This document shows positions 18,913-47,803 of a stretch of DNA of 47,819 nt, piece by piece. The stretch's first letter is position 1, and the number at the start of each line of letters is the position of its first letter. The notes beneath the pieces were generated by a model. That model was not told the DNA's origin, did not search any database, and was given only the letters and a program-made list of their open reading frames with translations. Both the position numbers and the translations under genes were made by a program. Source of the DNA: a virus. Taxonomy: Duplodnaviria > Heunggongvirae > Uroviricota > Caudoviricetes. Where the stretch lies: the IMG/VR virus record IMGVR_UViG_2534681833_000010. One strand, given 5' to 3'.

Positions 18913-19503
<591 letters not shown>

Positions 19504-19559
19504 TTAACAGATTCTACGAGTTGTCATTTGTGACAGTATGCTCGCAATCGTAGTGATTA

Positions 19560-20099
19560 CTACCACCAACTGCTAGCTTTCTTCTCTCTAGCTTTTCCTT
19601 CGCTTTGCAGTAAATCTTTACTTCCTGTAGAAATATTTCTATTTGCATCAGCCTCAGACTGAATTACATCTGTCTTAGCTGCTCTCTCCTTCAACTCCTG
19701 CTCTATAAAATCGTTTTCTCGCTGGACACGAGCCGCTTTTGCTTGCAGTTCGAGTTTCATGCTTTCGAGTTGCAGCTTGCGAAGCTCATCCTCATAAGCT
19801 TGATCTCGCTTCTTGTCATTTGCTAGCTCGGCTTCTCGTTTCGCTCTACGTTCATTTTCTGCAGCAACACGCTGTTTTTCGCGTGCAGCAGCGGCAGATG
19901 CTGCTTTTTCTCTTCTAATACGTTCAGCTTGTGCTTGTTGGCGAATAAGTTCTTTTCTGGCATCCTCAGCTTGCTGCTCTTTAGCTCGCCCTTCATTTTC
20001 CGCTTGAGCAATAGCAGCAATTTGACTTTGCAACGAGTTAGCCAAGGCAGTGCCTACACTAAACGTAGAAAAGATTAGAAATAAAATAATTTTATTCAT
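19560..20099 (-). CDS. secreted coiled-coil protein (TolA-like Ala/Glu/Lys/Arg-rich repeats)
   Basis: N-terminal signal peptide MNKIILFLIFSTFSVGTALA then highly charged helical repeats (EQQAEDARKELIRQQAQAERIRREKAASAAAAREKQRVAAENERRAKREAEL); AT-rich codon usage. Confidence 0.5.
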   Translation of the reverse strand: MNKIILFLIFSTFSVGTALANSLQSQIAAIAQAENEGRAKEQQAEDARKELIRQQAQAERIRREKAASAAAAREKQRVAAENERRAKREAELANDKKRDQAYEDELRKLQLESMKLELQAKAARVQRENDFIEQELKERAAKTDVIQSEADANRNISTGSKDLLQSEGKAREKKASSWW

Positions 20100-20102
20100 A
20101 AA

Positions 20103-20615
20103 TTATTTCTTTTCTGGACAAGTAGCATTTGGCTGAATTCGAGTTTCATTATCTTTAGTTGAAATAAGCACAGCAAGCCCCGTTGTAAACTGGCATGCTT
20201 TACCAACTTGAGTTGAAGTGAACACCTTAGTTCCTTCTTTATAAGTCAGTGAAACACCTTCAACAATTGTTTTATCACTAACCAAAGAACCAGCCGCTGC
20301 ACCAAGAGCCGCACCACCAGTACCGCCAGCTACAGCACCCAGTGTCGATGTGCCTTTAACATTATAACCGGCAACGCCCCCAGCAACAGCTCCCAGTACC
20401 GCACCAAATGTCTGTGCCGCTTCTTTATTAGCTTTATTATCAACTTTCACTTTAGCTGGAAGCACAGAGATAATATTGACTGTCTTTGTTTCCTGCTTCG
20501 AATTCAATTGAGCGGTATCATAAACATCGGCAGCATAATCAGCACCGCTAGATTGACACCCAGAAAGAAGAATTGCAGATACAACAAGAGCGCATAAAGT
20601 ATACTTTTTAGACAT
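20103..20615 (-). CDS. glycine-zipper lipoprotein
   Basis: Lipobox LLSGC after hydrophobic signal (MSKKYTLCALVVSAILLSGC); Gly/Ala zipper (GAVLGAVAGGVAGY..GAVAGGTGGAALGAAAG); 3 nt upstream of the coiled-coil gene. Confidence 0.5.
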   Translation of the reverse strand: MSKKYTLCALVVSAILLSGCQSSGADYAADVYDTAQLNSKQETKTVNIISVLPAKVKVDNKANKEAAQTFGAVLGAVAGGVAGYNVKGTSTLGAVAGGTGGAALGAAAGSLVSDKTIVEGVSLTYKEGTKVFTSTQVGKACQFTTGLAVLISTKDNETRIQPNATCPEKK

Positions 20616-20905
20616 AAGAATCATCCCAGAAAAACAAAAACCGGCGAGAAGTTACCACAAGAACGGAAAGTAAACAAGAATACTCCCATTGACTTATATC
20701 AATTAATCAACTTTTTATAAGCTATCCCTAACTTATTGTGTATAGCTGAAAAGTCAGAGACAAGTTCACCATCTGCATTATTTCTTAAGTTAATAGTTTA
20801 TTGCTAACTTAATTTATGTATCGACTATTGATATCCATCTTAAAGTTACAATATCCATCTGCATTATTTTTCATCACAAATAATATATCTATTGCACGAC
20901 ACTAA

Positions 20906-20922
20906 TCTGCTCTAATAAATTT
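20906..20922 (+). promoter_or_regulatory. C1 repressor operator (Op51-like)
   Basis: TCTGCTCTAATAAATTT matches P1 C1 operator consensus ATTGCTCTAATAAATTT at 15/17. Confidence 0.65.
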
Positions 20923-20960
20923 GTATTTTTAAGTCGCGAATGCTATCTTTTTGCATCATA

Positions 20961-20989
20961 TTGACCTTTTAATCGTTCAGGCTTATAGT
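20961..20989 (+). promoter_or_regulatory. sigma70-type promoter (P51b-like) for immunity operon
   Basis: TTGACC, 17-bp spacer, TATAGT. Confidence 0.5.
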
Positions 20990-21091
20990 TTCGCCGTCGT
21001 AGCAAATTCTGCGACCGGGTTTAGCAGCCTGAATACTTACGCGGACAACCGCAGATTTCCGATATTGCGGTATTTTTGTGTCCGTAAACCA

Positions 21092-21175
21092 CGTTACGCC
21101 CGAATTATGGTGGGGCGTGATGGGGAGGCTTCGGCCTGCTGGTTTCGTAAGTGCCAGTCTGCTAACCCCGTCACG
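21092..21175 (+). ncRNA. c4: c4-like antisense repressor RNA (coordinates approximate)
   Basis: Noncoding stretch between promoter and icd; segment GTCTGCTAACCCCGTC complementary to repeated target motifs GGGTTTAGCAGCC (21017-21029) and GTTTAGCAGCGGG (21186-21198) flanking it, as in P1 c4 control. Confidence 0.4.
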
Positions 21176-21234
21176 TCCTGCCACCTGTTTAGCAGCGGGT
21201 CGCAGGTTGTTTATCAACTTACGAGGCCGTAACT

Positions 21235-21456
21235 ATGGTTAATGCCAATCCTTGCGCACGCCAAGAATTCATCTGGCGTTTCTATTCCTGCAAAAAACAC
21301 CACTATCACTTCGTCATCGCAGCAACAGAAGACGAAGCACGCTCTCAATTGCCTGATGGCCCCTGCATTTTTACTGCCCGTTTTTCAACTAACTCGCGCA
21401 ATTCACTTAGTTACTGGAACCTCCCCTTCTCTGCCGACGTTCAGGGGGTTTTATGA
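21235..21456 (+). CDS. icd: Icd-like small protein (cell-division interference) translationally coupled to ant
   Basis: 73-aa ORF whose stop overlaps the ant start (ATGA); target repeat immediately upstream. Confidence 0.45.
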   Translation: MVNANPCARQEFIWRFYSCKKHHYHFVIAATEDEARSQLPDGPCIFTARFSTNSRNSLSYWNLPFSADVQGVL

Positions 21457-22496
21457 AAAAACCTCTCGTCACCCGTAATGACATAGCCGAAGCGATCGCC
21501 CTGCATACTGCCTGTATGCCGACACGGGAGATCCCCGGCGCAATTGCCAACTATTTCATGATAACCAGACGTTTTTATACCCGAACAGATAAGGCTGTGA
21601 TCAACAGGCTACTGATAGCCGAGATCAGGGATTATTTGATTGAACAAGGACGTCTACGTTACGCAACGGTGGCAGCAGAAATGAGAAAGGAGGCACATAG
21701 AATGACCAGTAATAATTTGAATGTTAAAAAACCAGCATCTGTTGCTTCAGCTACGCCATCACCAGCTGTGAATGTTATCTCCAACACTGGAGACACAATC
21801 GACAGCCAGACGCTGTTAAAGATGGTCAATGAAGCGCGTAAGTTATGTGGGGAACCAGAGGTTCGGAACAACAAATTCATCAAAAAAATACTCGACGAAT
21901 TAGAAGGTGAGGACGGTTACACAAAAAGTGCAACCGTGCCGCCAGGTGGCGGTACGCCTATGGTTGTCATAACCATGACCTACAAACAAGCCCTGCGAGT
22001 CGCCGCGCGCGAGTCAAAAGCAGTCCGCCGTTCGCTGATCGACAAACTGGAAGAATTGCAGCAGGCAAACTCCCCTGCCCCATCGATCCCCCAAACATTA
22101 CCAGACGCTCTACGCCTGGCTGCCGAGTTGGCAGAACAGAAAATGCAGTTGGAACAACAGCTGGTGGCCGCAGCCCCTAAAGTCGATTTTGCCGACCGGG
22201 TATCAGCGGCTAATGGAATCCTGATCGGGAACTTTGCAAAGGTCGTTGGACTTAAGCAAAACGCCCTTTTCTCATGGTTGCGCCAGAACGGCATTCTCAT
22301 GGCTTTTGGTGCGCGCAAAAACGTACCGCGCCAACAGTACATCAACGCCGGGTATTTCACGGTGAAAGAAGTGGTGCTGGATGATGAAAATGGCTACCAG
22401 ATACGGCTGACGCCCCAATTAACGGGTAAAGGCCAGCAGTGGTTAACTCGCAAGCTACTTGATGCTGGTTTGTTAAAACCAGTAGCAATAGGTTAA
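21453..22496 (+). CDS. ant: antirepressor Ant (Ant1; in-frame internal start for Ant2 at 21702)
   Basis: 347-aa ORF; C-terminal ANT/KilAC-type domain shared with KilA (about 60 percent identity over 135 aa); internal ATG at 21702 preceded by AAGGAGG. Confidence 0.65.
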   Translation: MKKPLVTRNDIAEAIALHTACMPTREIPGAIANYFMITRRFYTRTDKAVINRLLIAEIRDYLIEQGRLRYATVAAEMRKEAHRMTSNNLNVKKPASVASATPSPAVNVISNTGDTIDSQTLLKMVNEARKLCGEPEVRNNKFIKKILDELEGEDGYTKSATVPPGGGTPMVVITMTYKQALRVAARESKAVRRSLIDKLEELQQANSPAPSIPQTLPDALRLAAELAEQKMQLEQQLVAAAPKVDFADRVSAANGILIGNFAKVVGLKQNALFSWLRQNGILMAFGARKNVPRQQYINAGYFTVKEVVLDDENGYQIRLTPQLTGKGQQWLTRKLLDAGLLKPVAIG

Positions 22497-22502
22497 CAAA
22501 AG

Positions 22503-22533
22503 AAAAAACCTGCCAGCAAACTGGCAGGTTTCT
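22503..22533 (+). terminator. rho-independent terminator after ant
   Basis: CCTGCCAG-CAAA-CTGGCAGG hairpin followed by TTTCT. Confidence 0.55.
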
Positions 22534-22573
22534 GAGCAGATCGTCCAACCCGATCTGGATCGAGTCAGAAAAA

Positions 22574-22590
22574 TTTGCTCTAATAAATTT
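22574..22590 (+). promoter_or_regulatory. C1 repressor operator (Op53-like) upstream of kilA-repL
   Basis: TTTGCTCTAATAAATTT, 16/17 to consensus. Confidence 0.7.
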
Positions 22591-22659
22591 CGTTTTCTAA
22601 GTGCAAAGAATCACCATTTCGAGCTGGTGATTGAAGGTTGATGCAAATTTGGAGAAAAA

Positions 22660-23460
22660 ATGCAACAAACATTCAATGCGGATATGAATATATCAAACCT
22701 TCATCAAAATGTCGATCCTTCAACCACTCTGCCCGTTATTTGTGGTGTTGAAATTACGACCGACCGCGCTGGCCGTTACAACCTTAATGCTCTACACAGA
22801 GCGAGCGGACTCGGTGCCCATAAAGCGCCAGCTCAATGGCTAAGAACGCTGTCAGCTAAACAGCTCATCGAAGAGCTTGAAAAAGAAACTATGCAGAATT
22901 GCATAGTTTCGTTCGAAGGCCGTGGCGGCGGCACTTTTGCCCATGAATTGCTCGCTGTGGAGTACGCAGGCTGGATTTCTCCCGCGTTTCGGCTGAAGGT
23001 AAACCAGACATTTATCGACTATCGAGCTGGAAGATTACAACCTGCTATTCCGCAGAGTCTCCCTGAAGCTCTCCGTTTGGCTGCCGACCTGGCAGAGCAA
23101 AAGCAACGGCTGGAGCAAAAAATGCTTATGGATGCACCTAAAGTCGAATTCGCCGAACGCGTTGCTACCGCCAGCGGGGTTCTAATCGGCAACTATGCCA
23201 AAGTGCTCGGCCTGGGCCAAAACTATCTCTTCACCTGGTTGCGTGATAACGGAATTCTGATCGCAACCGGTGAACGCAGGAACGTCCCCAAACAAGAATA
23301 CATATCCCGTGGGTATTTCACCCTTAAAGAAACCGTGATCGATACAAGCAATGGAAGCAGGATTTCTTTCACGACTCGTATAACCGGCAAAGGTCAGCAG
23401 TGGCTTATGAAGCGATTGCTTGATGCTGGTGTGCTGGTGCCTGTCGCGGCGACGCGCTAA
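22660..23460 (+). CDS. kilA: KilA (KilA-N domain with ANT-type C-terminal domain)
   Basis: 266-aa ORF; N-terminal KilA-N-like region; C-terminus paralogous to Ant. Confidence 0.6.
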   Translation: MQQTFNADMNISNLHQNVDPSTTLPVICGVEITTDRAGRYNLNALHRASGLGAHKAPAQWLRTLSAKQLIEELEKETMQNCIVSFEGRGGGTFAHELLAVEYAGWISPAFRLKVNQTFIDYRAGRLQPAIPQSLPEALRLAADLAEQKQRLEQKMLMDAPKVEFAERVATASGVLIGNYAKVLGLGQNYLFTWLRDNGILIATGERRNVPKQEYISRGYFTLKETVIDTSNGSRISFTTRITGKGQQWLMKRLLDAGVLVPVAATR

Positions 23461-23489
23461 CAGACGTAGTAAGAACCACCAGCATTGTA

Positions 23490-24068
23490 ATGCTGGCTAA
23501 AGTCACTTTCCTGAGCTGTATAACGATGAGCGATTTTACTTTTTCTGGCTATGAATTGGCCTGCTTTGTAACACACTCCGGTCTATCCCGTAGCGCCGGG
23601 CATATCTTGTCGCAATGTGCAAATCTCGCGGCAACAACCAGTGAATACTTCATTCACAAGCCTCACCGCCTGATCGCGGCAGAAACTGGTTATAGCCAAT
23701 CAACCGTCGTTCGTGCATTCCGTGAAGCTGTAAACAAAGGAATCCTGTCTGTAGAGATTGTTATCGGCGATCACCGTGAACGTCGCGCTAACCTGTACCG
23801 GTTTACACCATCCTTTTTGGCCTTCGCACAACAAGCCAAAAATGCGCTGATTGAAAGCAAATTAAAGATCTCTTCAGCGGCAACCAAGGTTAAAGCTGTT
23901 CTCGCTAAGACATTGGCTTTATTTAATTTTTTATCCACACCCCCATGTCAAAATGATACCCCCTCCCCCTGTCAGGATGACGTGGCAATAAAGAATAAGA
24001 AGTCACAAGTTAAAAAACAAAAAGATCAGTTTCCGGCGGTGCCGGAACGACCAGACTCAAAAAATTGA
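23490..24068 (+). pseudogene. repL: RepL-like lytic replicon protein, N-terminal part ending at an apparent frameshift
   Basis: ORF downstream of kilA; ends in a Lys-rich tail at an A5 run; reading continues in the +1 frame with no start codon or RBS. Confidence 0.45.
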
Positions 24069-24334
24069 CTTCATGGATCGCTGAGGCAAAAGCAAAGGCT
24101 GACAATCTGCGGTTATCCAAAAAACGCGCTCAAAAACATGAGTTCAAGCAGAAAGTAGAGGCGGCAGCGCGGAAATATGCTTACCTGAAGGACAAGCGTT
24201 CTCCTGATATTGGCGGGATATCAAACTTCGATAATCTGCCGCATTGCATGACGGTAAACGAAGCTCTTAATGCGGTTTTAGCCAAAAATAAAGATAACGA
24301 ACAATGGGGTATACCGGCAGGATTCAGAGGGTGA
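24066..24334 (+). pseudogene. repL: RepL-like C-terminal continuation in shifted frame
   Basis: 89 codons opening with TTG inside the overlap TTGA; combined length 281 aa matches recalled RepL size. Confidence 0.35.
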
Positions 24335-24387
24335 TAGATTGCTCTAATCTGGAGTCACCTGGCGTTTTCGGTTTGAGGTCGGAGATG

Positions 24388-24630
24388 CAATCTGATTTTT
24401 TACAGTTAGCGATCGCTTTTGCAGGATATGTTTGTATTGGCTTCTGTGTATACATGATCAGCCGAAAAATGCTTGTCGATATCGACCGCAAAGAACAAGC
24501 AGAGGAGATCTTAGTATGGATTTTCTTTGGCGCGGTCTGGCCATTAGGGATCATGTTTGCTGCAACATTTCTTCTGATGTGGATATTCACCCTTCCAGGT
24601 GATTTCTATAGAAAAAAAGCCAGACATTGA
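24388..24630 (+). CDS. hypothetical small inner-membrane protein
   Basis: About 80 aa from MQSDF..; two hydrophobic helices (LAIAFAGYVCIGFCVYMI, WIFFGAVWPLGIMFAATFLLMWIF). Confidence 0.3.
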   Translation, partial: QSDFLQLAIAFAGYVCIGFCVYMISRKMLVDIDRKEQAEEILVWIFFGAVWPLGIMFAATFLLMWIFTLPGDFYRKKARH

Positions 24631-24699
24631 TACAATCGTTGCGGGTGCTTGAGGCTATCTGCTTCAGGCATTACCCGAAAAGCAGATAGAAGAAAGCCC

Positions 24700-24795
24700 C
24701 AGATAACATTACGCGTCCTGCAAGACGCTTAACATTAATCTGAGGCCATATCTATGCTTAGCATACGTAGATTAGCCTCTTACCGACCAAAAGGT
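24700..24795 (-). ncRNA. sok: sok-like antisense RNA region of hok/sok locus (coordinates approximate)
   Basis: Inferred from hok/mok arrangement: short mok-like reading frame starts at 24754 overlapping the hok start; sok is expected antisense to the mok initiation region. Confidence 0.25.
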
Positions 24796-24811
24796 CAAGG
24801 AGAAGCAGGCT

Positions 24812-24967
24812 ATGAAGCAGCATAAAGCGATATTAATCGCTCTGATCGTCATCTGTTTAACCGTCATTGTGACGGCACTGGTAACGAGGAAAGACCTCTG
24901 CGAGGTACGAATCCGAACCGGCCAGACGGAGGTCACTGTCTTCACAGCCTACGAATCTGAAAGGTAA
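24812..24967 (+). CDS. hok: Hok/Gef-family type I toxin
   Basis: 51-aa ORF MKQHKAILIALIVICLTVIVTALVTRKDLCEVRIRTGQTEVTVFTAYESER; leader ..TAGCCTCTTACCG..CAAGGAGAAG.. resembles hok mRNA; not in ORF track (below 60 aa). Confidence 0.75.
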   Translation: MKQHKAILIALIVICLTVIVTALVTRKDLCEVRIRTGQTEVTVFTAYESER

Positions 24968-24989
24968 GAGACCTGGCGGGGAGAGATCC

Positions 24990-26328
24990 CATAAGCGCTA
25001 ACTTAAGGGTTGTGGTATTACGCCTGATATGATTTAACGTGCCGATGAATTACTCTCACGATAACTGGTCAGCAATTCTGGCCCATATTGGTAAGCCCGA
25101 AGAACTGGATACTTCGGCACGTAATGCCGGGGCTCTAACCCGCCGCCGCGAAATTCGTGATGCTGCAACTCTGCTACGTCTGGGGCTGGCTTACGGCCCC
25201 GGGGGGATGTCATTACGTGAAGTCACTGCATGGGCTCAGCTCCATGACGTTGCAACATTATCTGACGTGGCTCTCCTGAAGCGGCTGCGGAATGCCGCCG
25301 ACTGGTTTGGCATACTTGCCGCACAAACACTTGCTGTACGCGCCGCAGTTACGGGTTGTACAAGCGGAAAGAGATTGCGTCTTGTCGATGGAACAGCAAT
25401 CAGTGCGCCCGGGGGCGGCAGCGCTGAATGGCGACTACATATGGGATATGATCCTCATACCTGTCAGTTCACTGATTTTGAGCTAACCGACAGCAGAGAC
25501 GCTGAACGGCTGGACCGATTTGCGCAAACGGCAGACGAGATACGCATTGCTGACCGGGGATTCGGTTCGCGTCCCGAATGTATCCGCTCACTTGCTTTTG
25601 GAGAAGCTGATTATATCGTCCGGGTTCACTGGCGAGGATTGCGCTGGTTAACTGCAGAAGGAATGCGCTTTGACATGATGGGTTTTCTGCGCGGGCTGGA
25701 TTGCGGTAAGAACGGTGAAACCACTGTAATGATAGGCAATTCAGGTAATAAAAAAGCCGGAGCTCCCTTTCCGGCACGTCTCATTGCCGTATCACTTCCT
25801 CCCGAAAAAGCATTAATCAGTAAAACCCGACTGCTCAGCGAGAATCGTCGAAAAGGACGAGTAGTTCAGGCGGAAACGCTGGAAGCAGCGGGCCATGTGC
25901 TATTGCTAACATCATTACCGGAAGATGAATATTCAGCAGAGCAAGTGGCTGATTGTTACCGTCTGCGATGGCAAATTGAACTGGCTTTTAAGCGGCTCAA
26001 AAGTTTGCTGCACCTGGATGCTTTGCGTGCAAAGGAACCTGAACTCGCGAAAGCGTGGATATTTGCTAATCTACTCGCCGCATTTTTAATTGACGACATA
26101 ATCCAGCCATCGCTGGATTTCCCCCCCAGAAGTGCCGGATCCGAAAAGAAGAACTAACTCGTTGTGGAGAATAACAAAAATGGTCATCTGGAGCTTACAG
26201 GTGGCCATTCGTGGGACAGTATCCCTGACAGCCTACAAAACGCAATTGAAGAACGCGAGGCATCGTCTTAACGAGGCACCGAGGCGTCGCATTCTTCAGA
26301 TGGTTCAACCCTTAAGTTAGCGCTTATG
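24990..26328 (+). mobile_element. IS186 (IS4 family), complete, with 10-bp target duplication GGAGAGATCC
   Basis: Terminal inverted repeats CATAAGCGCTAACTTAAGGGTTG at both ends; direct repeats at 24980-24989 and 26329-26338; target is a GC-rich palindrome. Confidence 0.85.
25045..26157 (+). CDS. insL: IS186 transposase
   Basis: MNYSHDNWSAILAHIGKPEELDTSARNAGALTRRREIRD... recognised as IS186 transposase. Confidence 0.85.
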   Translation: MNYSHDNWSAILAHIGKPEELDTSARNAGALTRRREIRDAATLLRLGLAYGPGGMSLREVTAWAQLHDVATLSDVALLKRLRNAADWFGILAAQTLAVRAAVTGCTSGKRLRLVDGTAISAPGGGSAEWRLHMGYDPHTCQFTDFELTDSRDAERLDRFAQTADEIRIADRGFGSRPECIRSLAFGEADYIVRVHWRGLRWLTAEGMRFDMMGFLRGLDCGKNGETTVMIGNSGNKKAGAPFPARLIAVSLPPEKALISKTRLLSENRRKGRVVQAETLEAAGHVLLLTSLPEDEYSAEQVADCYRLRWQIELAFKRLKSLLHLDALRAKEPELAKAWIFANLLAAFLIDDIIQPSLDFPPRSAGSEKKN

Positions 26329-46477: not shown

Positions 46478-47803
46478 TGAATCCCCTAATGATTTTGGTA
46501 AAAATCATTAAGTTAAGGTGGATACACATCTTGTCATATGATCAAATGGTTTCGCGAAAAATCAATAATCAGACAACAAGATGTGCGAACTCGATATTTT
46601 ACACGACTCTCTTTACCAATTCTGCCCCGAATTACACTTAAAACGACTCAACAGCTTAACGTTGGCTTGCCACGCATTACTTGACTGTAAAACTCTCACT
46701 CTTACCGAACTTGGCCGTAACCTGCCAACCAAAGCGAGAACAAAACATAACATCAAACGAATCGACCGATTGTTAGGTAATCGTCACCTCCACAAAGAGC
46801 GACTCGCTGTATACCGTTGGCATGCTAGCTTTATCTGTTCGGGCAATACGATGCCCATTGTACTTGTTGACTGGTCTGATATTCGTGAGCAAAAACGACT
46901 TATGGTATTGCGAGCTTCAGTCGCACTACACGGTCGTTCTGTTACTCTTTATGAGAAAGCGTTCCCGCTTTCAGAGCAATGTTCAAAGAAAGCTCATGAC
47001 CAATTTCTAGCCGACCTTGCGAGCATTCTACCGAGTAACACCACACCGCTCATTGTCAGTGATGCTGGCTTTAAAGTGCCATGGTATAAATCCGTTGAGA
47101 AGCTGGGTTGGTACTGGTTAAGTCGAGTAAGAGGAAAAGTACAATATGCAGACCTAGGAGCGGAAAACTGGAAACCTATCAGCAACTTACATGATATGTC
47201 ATCTAGTCACTCAAAGACTTTAGGCTATAAGAGGCTGACTAAAAGCAATCCAATCTCATGCCAAATTCTATTGTATAAATCTCGCTCTAAAGGCCGAAAA
47301 AATCAGCGCTCGACACGGACTCATTGTCACCACCCGTCACCTAAAATCTACTCAGCGTCGGCAAAGGAGCCATGGGTTCTAGCAACTAACTTACCTGTTG
47401 AAATTCGAACACCCAAACAACTTGTTAATATCTATTCGAAGCGAATGCAGATTGAAGAAACCTTCCGAGACTTGAAAAGTCCTGCCTACGGACTAGGCCT
47501 ACGCCATAGCCGAACGAGCAGCTCAGAGCGTTTTGATATCATGCTGCTAATCGCCCTGATGCTTCAACTAACATGTTGGCTTGCGGGCGTTCATGCTCAG
47601 AAACAAGGTTGGGACAAGCACTTCCAGGCTAACACAGTCAGAAATCGAAACGTACTCTCAACAGTTCGCTTAGGCATGGAAGTTTTGCGGCATTCTGGCT
47701 ACACAATAACAAGGGAAGACTTACTCGTGGCTGCAACCCTACTAGCTCAAAATTTATTCACACATGGTTACGCTTTGGGGGAAATTATGAGGGGATCTCT
47801 CAG
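46474..47803 (+). mobile_element. IS10 (Tn10-type, IS4 family)
   Basis: Outside end CTGATGAATCCCCTAATGATTTTGGTAAAAATCATTAAG at 46474; inside end ..GGGGATCTCTCAG ending 47803; no matching 9-bp target duplication. Confidence 0.85.

Follow-up and report, generated by a model that had tools for sequence, protein, structure and literature searches.

A P1/P7-like immI operon with a predicted c4 specificity of its own in a 47.8-kb viral DNA

The viral record IMGVR_UViG_2534681833_000010 (Caudoviricetes) comprises 47,819 nucleotides (nt), and this whole stretch of DNA is termed the window in the following. Positions 20906-22533 of the window carry what is most likely the immI (secondary immunity) operon of a P1/P7-like phage-plasmid, in which the antisense RNA c4 would govern the production of an antirepressor. 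We assign a probability of about 0.9 to this reading, which includes a P1-like mode of working, itself most likely, and a predicted c4 specificity of its own. The module is an ordinary, textbook one that has already been explained, and its exact sequence is already public in plasmids. The only new point is that its c4 recognition code matches neither that of P1 nor that of P7, the characterised phages.

In megablast comparisons the segment falls among the P1-like phage-plasmids (Punavirus), with DNA identities of 97.9% to MH422554, 96.6% to P7 and 94.5% to P1, and the immI region is collinear with the annotated records of P1 (AF234172) and P7 (AF503408). It has the parts that characterise the operon in both phages, i.e., the C1 operator with the promoters P51a and P51b, the c4 RNA, the a and b targets with b2 at the ribosome-binding site of icd, and the icd/ant1/ant2 layout (Table 1). 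Over its first 24 kb the window is collinear with the tail-fibre, sit and darA genes of P7. About 6 kb (19000-25012) are essentially identical to the E. coli plasmid pSvP1 (reported as 100.0%, with one indel found), which contains a second copy of the region elsewhere. According to PLSDB, the region is present in 575 plasmids, 84 of which are at least 99% identical to the leader of the window.

The c4 RNA, its recognition elements and their covariation

The non-coding leader that precedes icd is 245 nt long. Two Rfam families match it above their gathering scores: C4 (RF01695) at 21103-21188, with 70.8 bits against 45, and c4-a1b1 (RF03163) at 20983-21035, with 55.3 bits against 46.7. The predicted fold of c4 has a minimum free energy of -45.7 kcal/mol (z = -5.19) and leaves both recognition segments unpaired: b' (CGUAAGU, 21146-21152) sits in a 9-nt hairpin loop, and a' (CUGCUAA, 21159-21165) forms a 7-nt single-stranded junction. 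In the P1 record two target elements, a and b, are each annotated upstream and downstream of c4, and all four corresponding sites of the window offer 7-bp Watson-Crick matches to c4. The full cognate duplexes amount to -22.8 kcal/mol for a1b1 and -24.4 kcal/mol for a2b2. Target b2 and the icd Shine-Dalgarno (SD) sequence GAGG share one nucleotide, the final G of the former being the initial G of the latter. Judging from the letters alone, the invariant UUU that precedes b' on its 5' side can lengthen the b2 duplex so that it spans this SD sequence, a reading with which the stronger b2 energy agrees.

A preliminary description of this DNA had recognised a duplicated motif on either side of a non-coding segment carrying its complement, and had taken this for the layout of c4 antisense control. 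The motif and its complement are indeed present: GTTTAGCAGC occurs in exactly two copies in the 47.8 kb (21019-21028 and 21187-21196, against 0.09 expected), and GTCTGCTAACC at 21157-21167 is partly complementary to it, the true core being the 7 bp formed by UUAGCAG with CUGCUAA. This is only the a element, and the second element, b, had been missed. The antisense layout as such is upheld by the two Rfam matches, by the collinearity with P1 and P7 and by complementarity that covaries, and the RNA folding and duplex prediction that had been proposed as a check returned the stable c4 fold and the cognate duplexes given above. The b 7-mer alone is not rare (seven copies in the window, against 3.9 expected). 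A fourth copy of CGTAAGT, within ant (21837-21843), was considered as a b element; in P1 and P7 it does not follow the b type, and it was attributed to chance.

In IMG/VR and the GTDB genomes, a search for the conserved c4 core that allowed any letters at a' and b' yielded at least 120 viral loci and three genomic loci; covariation was assessed in an alignment of 52 distinct 260-nt leaders. Among the sequences listed with complete flanks, all 120 have identical a1 and a2 that are the reverse complement of a', and identical b1 and b2 that are the reverse complement of b'. In each of the 52 leaders, all four intermolecular helices consist entirely of standard pairs, although two of the seven a pairs and six of the seven b pairs (8/14 in all) have changed on both sides, with no one-sided or unpaired cells. 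When the partner was slid by one to three columns as a control, pairing fell to 33-54%. The preliminary description had staked the c4 proposal on complementarity being conserved in homologues; it is decisively so, compensatory changes having preserved it in all 52 leaders.

At least two a alleles and at least seven b alleles occur among the matches listed (120 sequences with complete flanks). Of their 14 possible combinations, at least 12 are found in the 120 IMG/VR loci listed, and phage D6 adds a 13th. The type of the window, P7's a together with b ACUUAC, accounts for 17 of these 120 loci (14%) and is the second most common among the matches listed. Alleles of a and b are combined almost independently of each other (Cramer's V = 0.38), and only polymorphisms right next to an element travel with it. 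Since copies of the two elements are intermingled along the leader (a1, b1, b', a', a2, b2), single crossovers cannot yield such free assortment, which points to very short gene-conversion tracts or to repeated stepwise coevolution. Were one crossover to fall between b1 and b', a1/b1 would be mismatched and repression through a2b2 spared, and no such mismatch was seen in the 120 listed sequences or the 52 leaders. Because a1/b1 are never mismatched to c4, the upstream sites appear to be under selection; to our knowledge, their covariation is the first comparative evidence for selection on these "putative" sites. No published catalogue of c4 types was found in literature searches that did not cover the likeliest source (D6), and an earlier description is possible.

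Some P1-like elements hold two to four separate c4 leader modules. Four lie on one 97-kb IMG/VR contig (L019, L054, L102 and L124) and three on a 103-kb contig (L016, L078 and L107), and five further contigs have two. Co-resident modules differ in their (a,b) type in 14 of 14 pairs, which is not significant, as a random pair differs in about 87% of cases. One of the genomic matches (L126), on a 2.9-kb contig (JAFAFU010000019.1) of a metagenome-assembled genome assigned to "Bacillota", carries a c4 module whose type is exactly that of the window; it most likely entered this bin as a contaminant, from a P1-like element of an enterobacterium.

It is this locus that makes P1 and P7 heteroimmune (see also PMC6906374). 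They are 2 nt apart in a and differ at two of the six positions of b. The window agrees with neither. It shares a with P7 and differs from it in b at all three sites (ACUUAC against GAUUGU, 4/6 positions); from P1 it differs both in a (UUAGCAG against UUGACAG) and in b (ACUUAC against GUUAGU, 5/6 positions). In a four-way alignment all three b copies of the window have changed together. From these differences we infer that the window belongs to a separate c4 specificity group. The calculated energies are in line with this assignment: c4 of the window forms duplexes of -11 to -16 kcal/mol with P1 or P7 targets (-11.2 and -15.8 kcal/mol for those of P1), against the cognate values above. The b loop alone contributes about -11 to -12 kcal/mol in cognate pairs (-10.9 to -11.1 kcal/mol for b2 of the window), as opposed to -1.5 and -1.7 kcal/mol between the window and P7 and -0.9 and -3.4 kcal/mol between the window and P1. 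We predict that the window element is not repressed by the c4 RNA of P1, and probably not by that of P7 either.

Operon structure and proposed mechanism

The C1 operator in front of the operon ends 38 nt before the -35 hexamer of P51b, the same distance as in P1. Operator-like sites number five in the window, against 0.24 expected. Apart from the two listed in Table 1, matches occur at 38877-38893, 42153-42169 (+) and 42164-42180 (-), the last two forming an overlapping inverted pair (42153-42180) that has the look of a bivalent operator. The TTGACC-17-TATAGT promoter that the preliminary description had placed after the first operator coincides with the annotated P1c4/P51b of P1 and is invariant in P1, P7 and MH422554. 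A consensus promoter scan of the region gave three promoter-like sites against 3.1 expected and did not set P51b apart from chance, so that its identification follows from homology to P1 and not from the scan. Missing from the earlier account was P51a, a second promoter that overlaps the operator. From the P1 literature, we take P51b to be the constitutive promoter and P51a to be the one controlled by C1.

The Icd protein is 95.9% identical to that of P1 and 98.6% to that of P7, and the respective values for Ant1 are 92.5% and 90.0%. Ant1 carries the Pfam ANT/KilAC antirepressor domain (E = 5e-31). The ATGA overlap of icd and ant, already pointed out in the preliminary description, agrees with the annotation of P1 and P7, and the overlap of -4 is retained in Ant1-like homologues. 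Likewise, the shorter in-frame product that had been proposed to start at an internal AAGGAGG-ATG corresponds to Ant2: the start at codon 84 has the same offset as the annotated ant2 of P1 and P7, and the SD-ATG arrangement is found in 67 of 71 Ant1-like open reading frames (ORFs) of related loci, even in some that share no more than 52-56% identity with Ant1 of the window. In the related loci (L004-L127) the c4-icd cassette is joined to differing antirepressor genes. These partners are of the Ant1/Ant2 type with the ATGA overlap, or Ant1-like proteins of 363-384 amino acids (aa) with 52-56% identity, or an unrelated protein, which has 235 aa like the Roi-like antirepressor of D6 and occurs in at least 15 loci.

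The mechanism proposed for the window follows that of P1, summarised in PMC8198154 and in the notes of the P1 GenBank record. The sequence, structure, homology and covariation are those of the present analysis, and the processing, coupling, Rho polarity and Ant-C1 binding are taken from the P1 literature and annotation. C1 bound at its operator (20906-20922) would shut off P51a, and P51b would still transcribe the leader, c4, icd and ant. The 77-nt c4 would be excised from this transcript (21109-21185), its 5' end being generated by RNase P, as in P1. Its b' segment, together with the 5' UUU, and its a' segment would pair with b2 plus the SD sequence (21217-21226) and with a2 (21189-21195), respectively, occluding the ribosome-binding site of icd and blocking its translation; the upstream a1 and b1 would also pair with c4. 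Lack of icd translation would leave ant untranslated, owing to the ATGA coupling, and incompletely transcribed, owing to Rho-dependent polarity as in P1, and consequently neither Ant1 nor the internally initiated Ant2 would be made. Where there is too little c4, or where c4 does not match its targets, as when a heterotypic phage superinfects, Icd, Ant1 and Ant2 would be produced, and the two Ant proteins together would inactivate C1. The P1/P7 mechanism reportedly goes back to Citron and Schuster in 1990, Biere et al. in 1992, Riedel et al. in 1993 and Hartmann et al. in 1995.

Table 1. Features of the immI region and its immediate surroundings in the window
Feature	Position	Strand	Basis and remarks
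P7-type lipoprotein (173 aa, upf50.5) and DUF5384 protein (179 aa)	19560-20624	-	Upstream of the operator; simABC at that position in P1
C1 repressor operator Oc4 (formerly Op51)	20906-20922	+	TCTGCTCTAATAAATTT; 15/17 consensus matches (2 mismatches); aligns with the annotated P1 and P7 operators
Promoter P2c4 (P51a), presumably C1-controlled	20920-20949	+	-35 TTTGTAT 20920-20926, -10 TATCTT 20944-20949; placed by alignment with P1, hexamers identical to P1
Promoter P1c4 (P51b)	20961-20989	+	TTGACC 20961-20966, 17-nt spacer, TATAGT 20984-20989; 10/12 consensus matches
Hairpin 1	20996-21015	+	Leader, upstream of a1
Hairpin 2, carrying a1	21016-21031	+	Leader
Target a1, UUAGCAG	21021-21027	+	Presented in the 8-nt loop of hairpin 2; pairs with a'
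Target b1, ACUUACG	21035-21041	+	Single-stranded; pairs with b'
Hairpin ACCGCA...UGCGGU, then A and UUUUU	21048-21077	+	Between b1 and c4; possible weak intrinsic terminator (putative function)
c4 antisense RNA, 77 nt	21109-21185	+	Rfam C4 match; ends mapped from P1/P7 annotation
Target a2, UUAGCAG	21189-21195	+	Annotated a2 of P1 by alignment; pairs with a'
Target b2, ACUUACG	21217-21223	+	Annotated b2 of P1; overlaps the icd SD sequence GAGG (21223-21226)
icd, 73 aa, cell-division inhibitor; translation needed for ant expression	21235-21456	+	ORF; function from P1/P7 annotation
ant1, 347 aa, antirepressor	21453-22496	+	ORF; start overlaps the icd stop as ATGA
ant2, 264 aa, in frame within ant1	21687-22496	+	SD AAGGAGG 21687-21693, 8 nt, ATG 21702 (codon 84)
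GC-rich terminator-like hairpin after ant	22504-22533	.	13-bp stem on minus strand; plus strand -19.3 kcal/mol, z = -3.95, tail UUUCU
Second C1 operator	22574-22590		In front of a KilA-N/KilAC gene

Alternative readings

Several points weigh against a P1-like immI operon with its own specificity. Its a element is identical to that of P7, and the c4 RNA of P7 would pair with a2b2 of the window at -18.1 kcal/mol, against -24.4 kcal/mol for the cognate RNA; partial cross-repression by P7 c4 through the shared a is possible. By analogy, the expression and processing of c4 in this element are presumed from P1 and P7. A hairpin at the SD sequence and start of ant1, considered as the structure behind the coupling, folds no better than shuffled sequences (z = 0.22) and was dropped. 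Finally, the phage-plasmid that harbours the module may be a defective phage, the module itself being unaffected: repL (23490-24335) has a 1-nt deletion near 24012-24017 (A6, against A7 in pSvP1) and codes for a truncated protein of 192 aa instead of 281 aa, which may reflect either a sequencing error in the homopolymer or a true pseudogene.

Taken further, the first of these points would make the module functionally P7-immune, the shared a/a' pairing being enough for repression by P7 c4 and the window forming no separate group. Besides the energy of the P7 c4 duplex, the identity of a1, a' and a2 with P7 speaks for this, as does the energy of the a duplex alone (-8.5 to -10 kcal/mol); moreover, one IMG/VR contig has two co-resident modules with the same b and different a, which suggests that a alone may matter. 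We nevertheless consider it unlikely, as four of the six variable b positions differ from P7 and the cross b duplex has -1.5 to -1.7 kcal/mol where the cognate one has -11, and it is b2 that covers the SD sequence. In addition, P1 and P7 are heteroimmune with merely 2 nt changed in a and 2 nt in b, and a system that tolerated b mismatches would not have kept perfect covariation at three sites in 52 of 52 leaders. The separate specificity group is therefore preferred.

The other alternative concerns the upstream targets. The hairpin at 21048-21077 may act as a terminator at which some of the P51b transcripts stop, releasing an a1b1 RNA of about 80 nt that acts in trans, e.g., by titrating c4 or by activating the read-through mRNA; a1b1 would then be an anti-antisense RNA and not a passive target. 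Such is the precedent of Gifsy-1, where the short leader RNA IsrK terminates and then targets the read-through mRNA in trans (PMC4825925). The Rfam isrK model (RF01394) aligns end to end with 20996-21077, starting about 7 nt past the -10 hexamer of P51b, but as its 47.9 bits stay below the gathering score (50), the leader falls outside the family. The hairpin and its U-run hardly vary among the 52 leaders, and in the divergent locus L106 the hairpin persists through a compensatory CCGCU/AGCGG change, followed by U7. Furthermore, a1/b1 always covary with c4, although blocking icd needs only a2/b2. On the other hand, the hairpin is weak (-8.5 kcal/mol, z = -1.95, with a loop of 10-12 nt and a U-run interrupted by A), it was not called by the terminator scan, and the P1 record has no terminator annotated there. 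On balance an IsrK-like leader seems improbable, slightly more so than P7 immunity, and a1b1 as a further target of c4 remains the preferred reading.

That the segment between the repeats encodes a protein repressor and not an RNA can practically be dismissed: a 93-aa ORF (20951-21232) and a 54-aa ORF (21078-21242) do exist and the old record X15639 lists c4 as a coding sequence, but the variation is RNA-like, with paired compensatory changes at three separated sites, the Rfam C4 match is strong and the fold very stable, and current P1 and P7 annotation gives c4 as misc_RNA. A protein c4 is said to have been refuted for P1 and P7 as early as 1990, by Citron and Schuster.

Natural c4 specificity in P1-like phage-plasmids comprises at least 13 combinatorial types, each of them matched at all three sites, and not just those of P1 or P7. 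More speculatively, and with little confidence, we suggest that a two-part RNA barcode (a and b, at three sites each) may define many mutually orthogonal immunity groups, with a functional a1b1 that is possibly an IsrK-like, c4-titrating RNA of about 80 nt ending at 21077. Resistance genes are spread among E. coli and Salmonella by P1-like elements, and which of these elements can coexist with or induce one another should depend on the a/b code; if this is true, typing an element for its b core (6 nt) and a switch (2 nt) could help to predict cross-immunity.

Genomic neighbours and comparison with known systems

Directly after repL the window has a hok/sok toxin-antitoxin locus at 24643-24817 (+), with an Rfam sok match of 114.9 bits; in related plasmids a Hok/Gef gene follows repL and is itself followed by IS421. 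The IS10 antisense RNA, RNA-OUT, is found at 46519-46588 (-) with 98.8 bits, and three tRNA genes lie on the plus strand at 42840-42912, 42918-42990 and 45199-45271.

Like the immI operon of P7 (AF503408), that of the window has its parts in the order Op(c4), c4, icd, ant1/ant2 and is preceded by upf50.5 and the DUF5384 gene. It differs from P7 in all three copies of b, and its Ant1, 90% identical, is one residue shorter. Every feature annotated in the immI region of P1 (AF234172) has a counterpart at the same spacing in the window; Ant1 has 347 aa in both, and ant2 begins at codon 84 in both. Unlike the window, which has P7-type genes upstream, P1 carries simABC at that position, and both its a and its b are different.

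The closest counterparts in terms of the code are Salmonella phage SJ46 and plasmid pSvP1, which have exactly the a and b type of the window. Phage D6 has the same b, ACUUAC, but the a element of P1, and downstream of its c4-icd lies a Roi-like antirepressor of 235 aa where the window has Ant1/Ant2. The D6, SJ46 and pSvP1 records carry no annotation of c4 or its specificity.

More distantly, the IsrK/STnc1160-orf45-anrP locus of Gifsy-1 (Salmonella) resembles the window in having a two-hairpin leader RNA with a terminator, a c4-like RNA, a small ORF and a coupled antirepressor (PMC4825925). The regulation differs: in Gifsy-1 it is the short leader RNA that activates translation in trans, whereas the known regulator of P1 and P7 is the downstream repressor RNA c4. 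The CI RNA of satellite phage P4 acts by premature transcription termination of replication genes and not by occlusion of a ribosome-binding site in an antirepressor operon. As in the window, however, the P4 system (seqA, seqB, seqC) relies on a small RNA processed from the leader that pairs with sites upstream and downstream of itself (PMC4825925).

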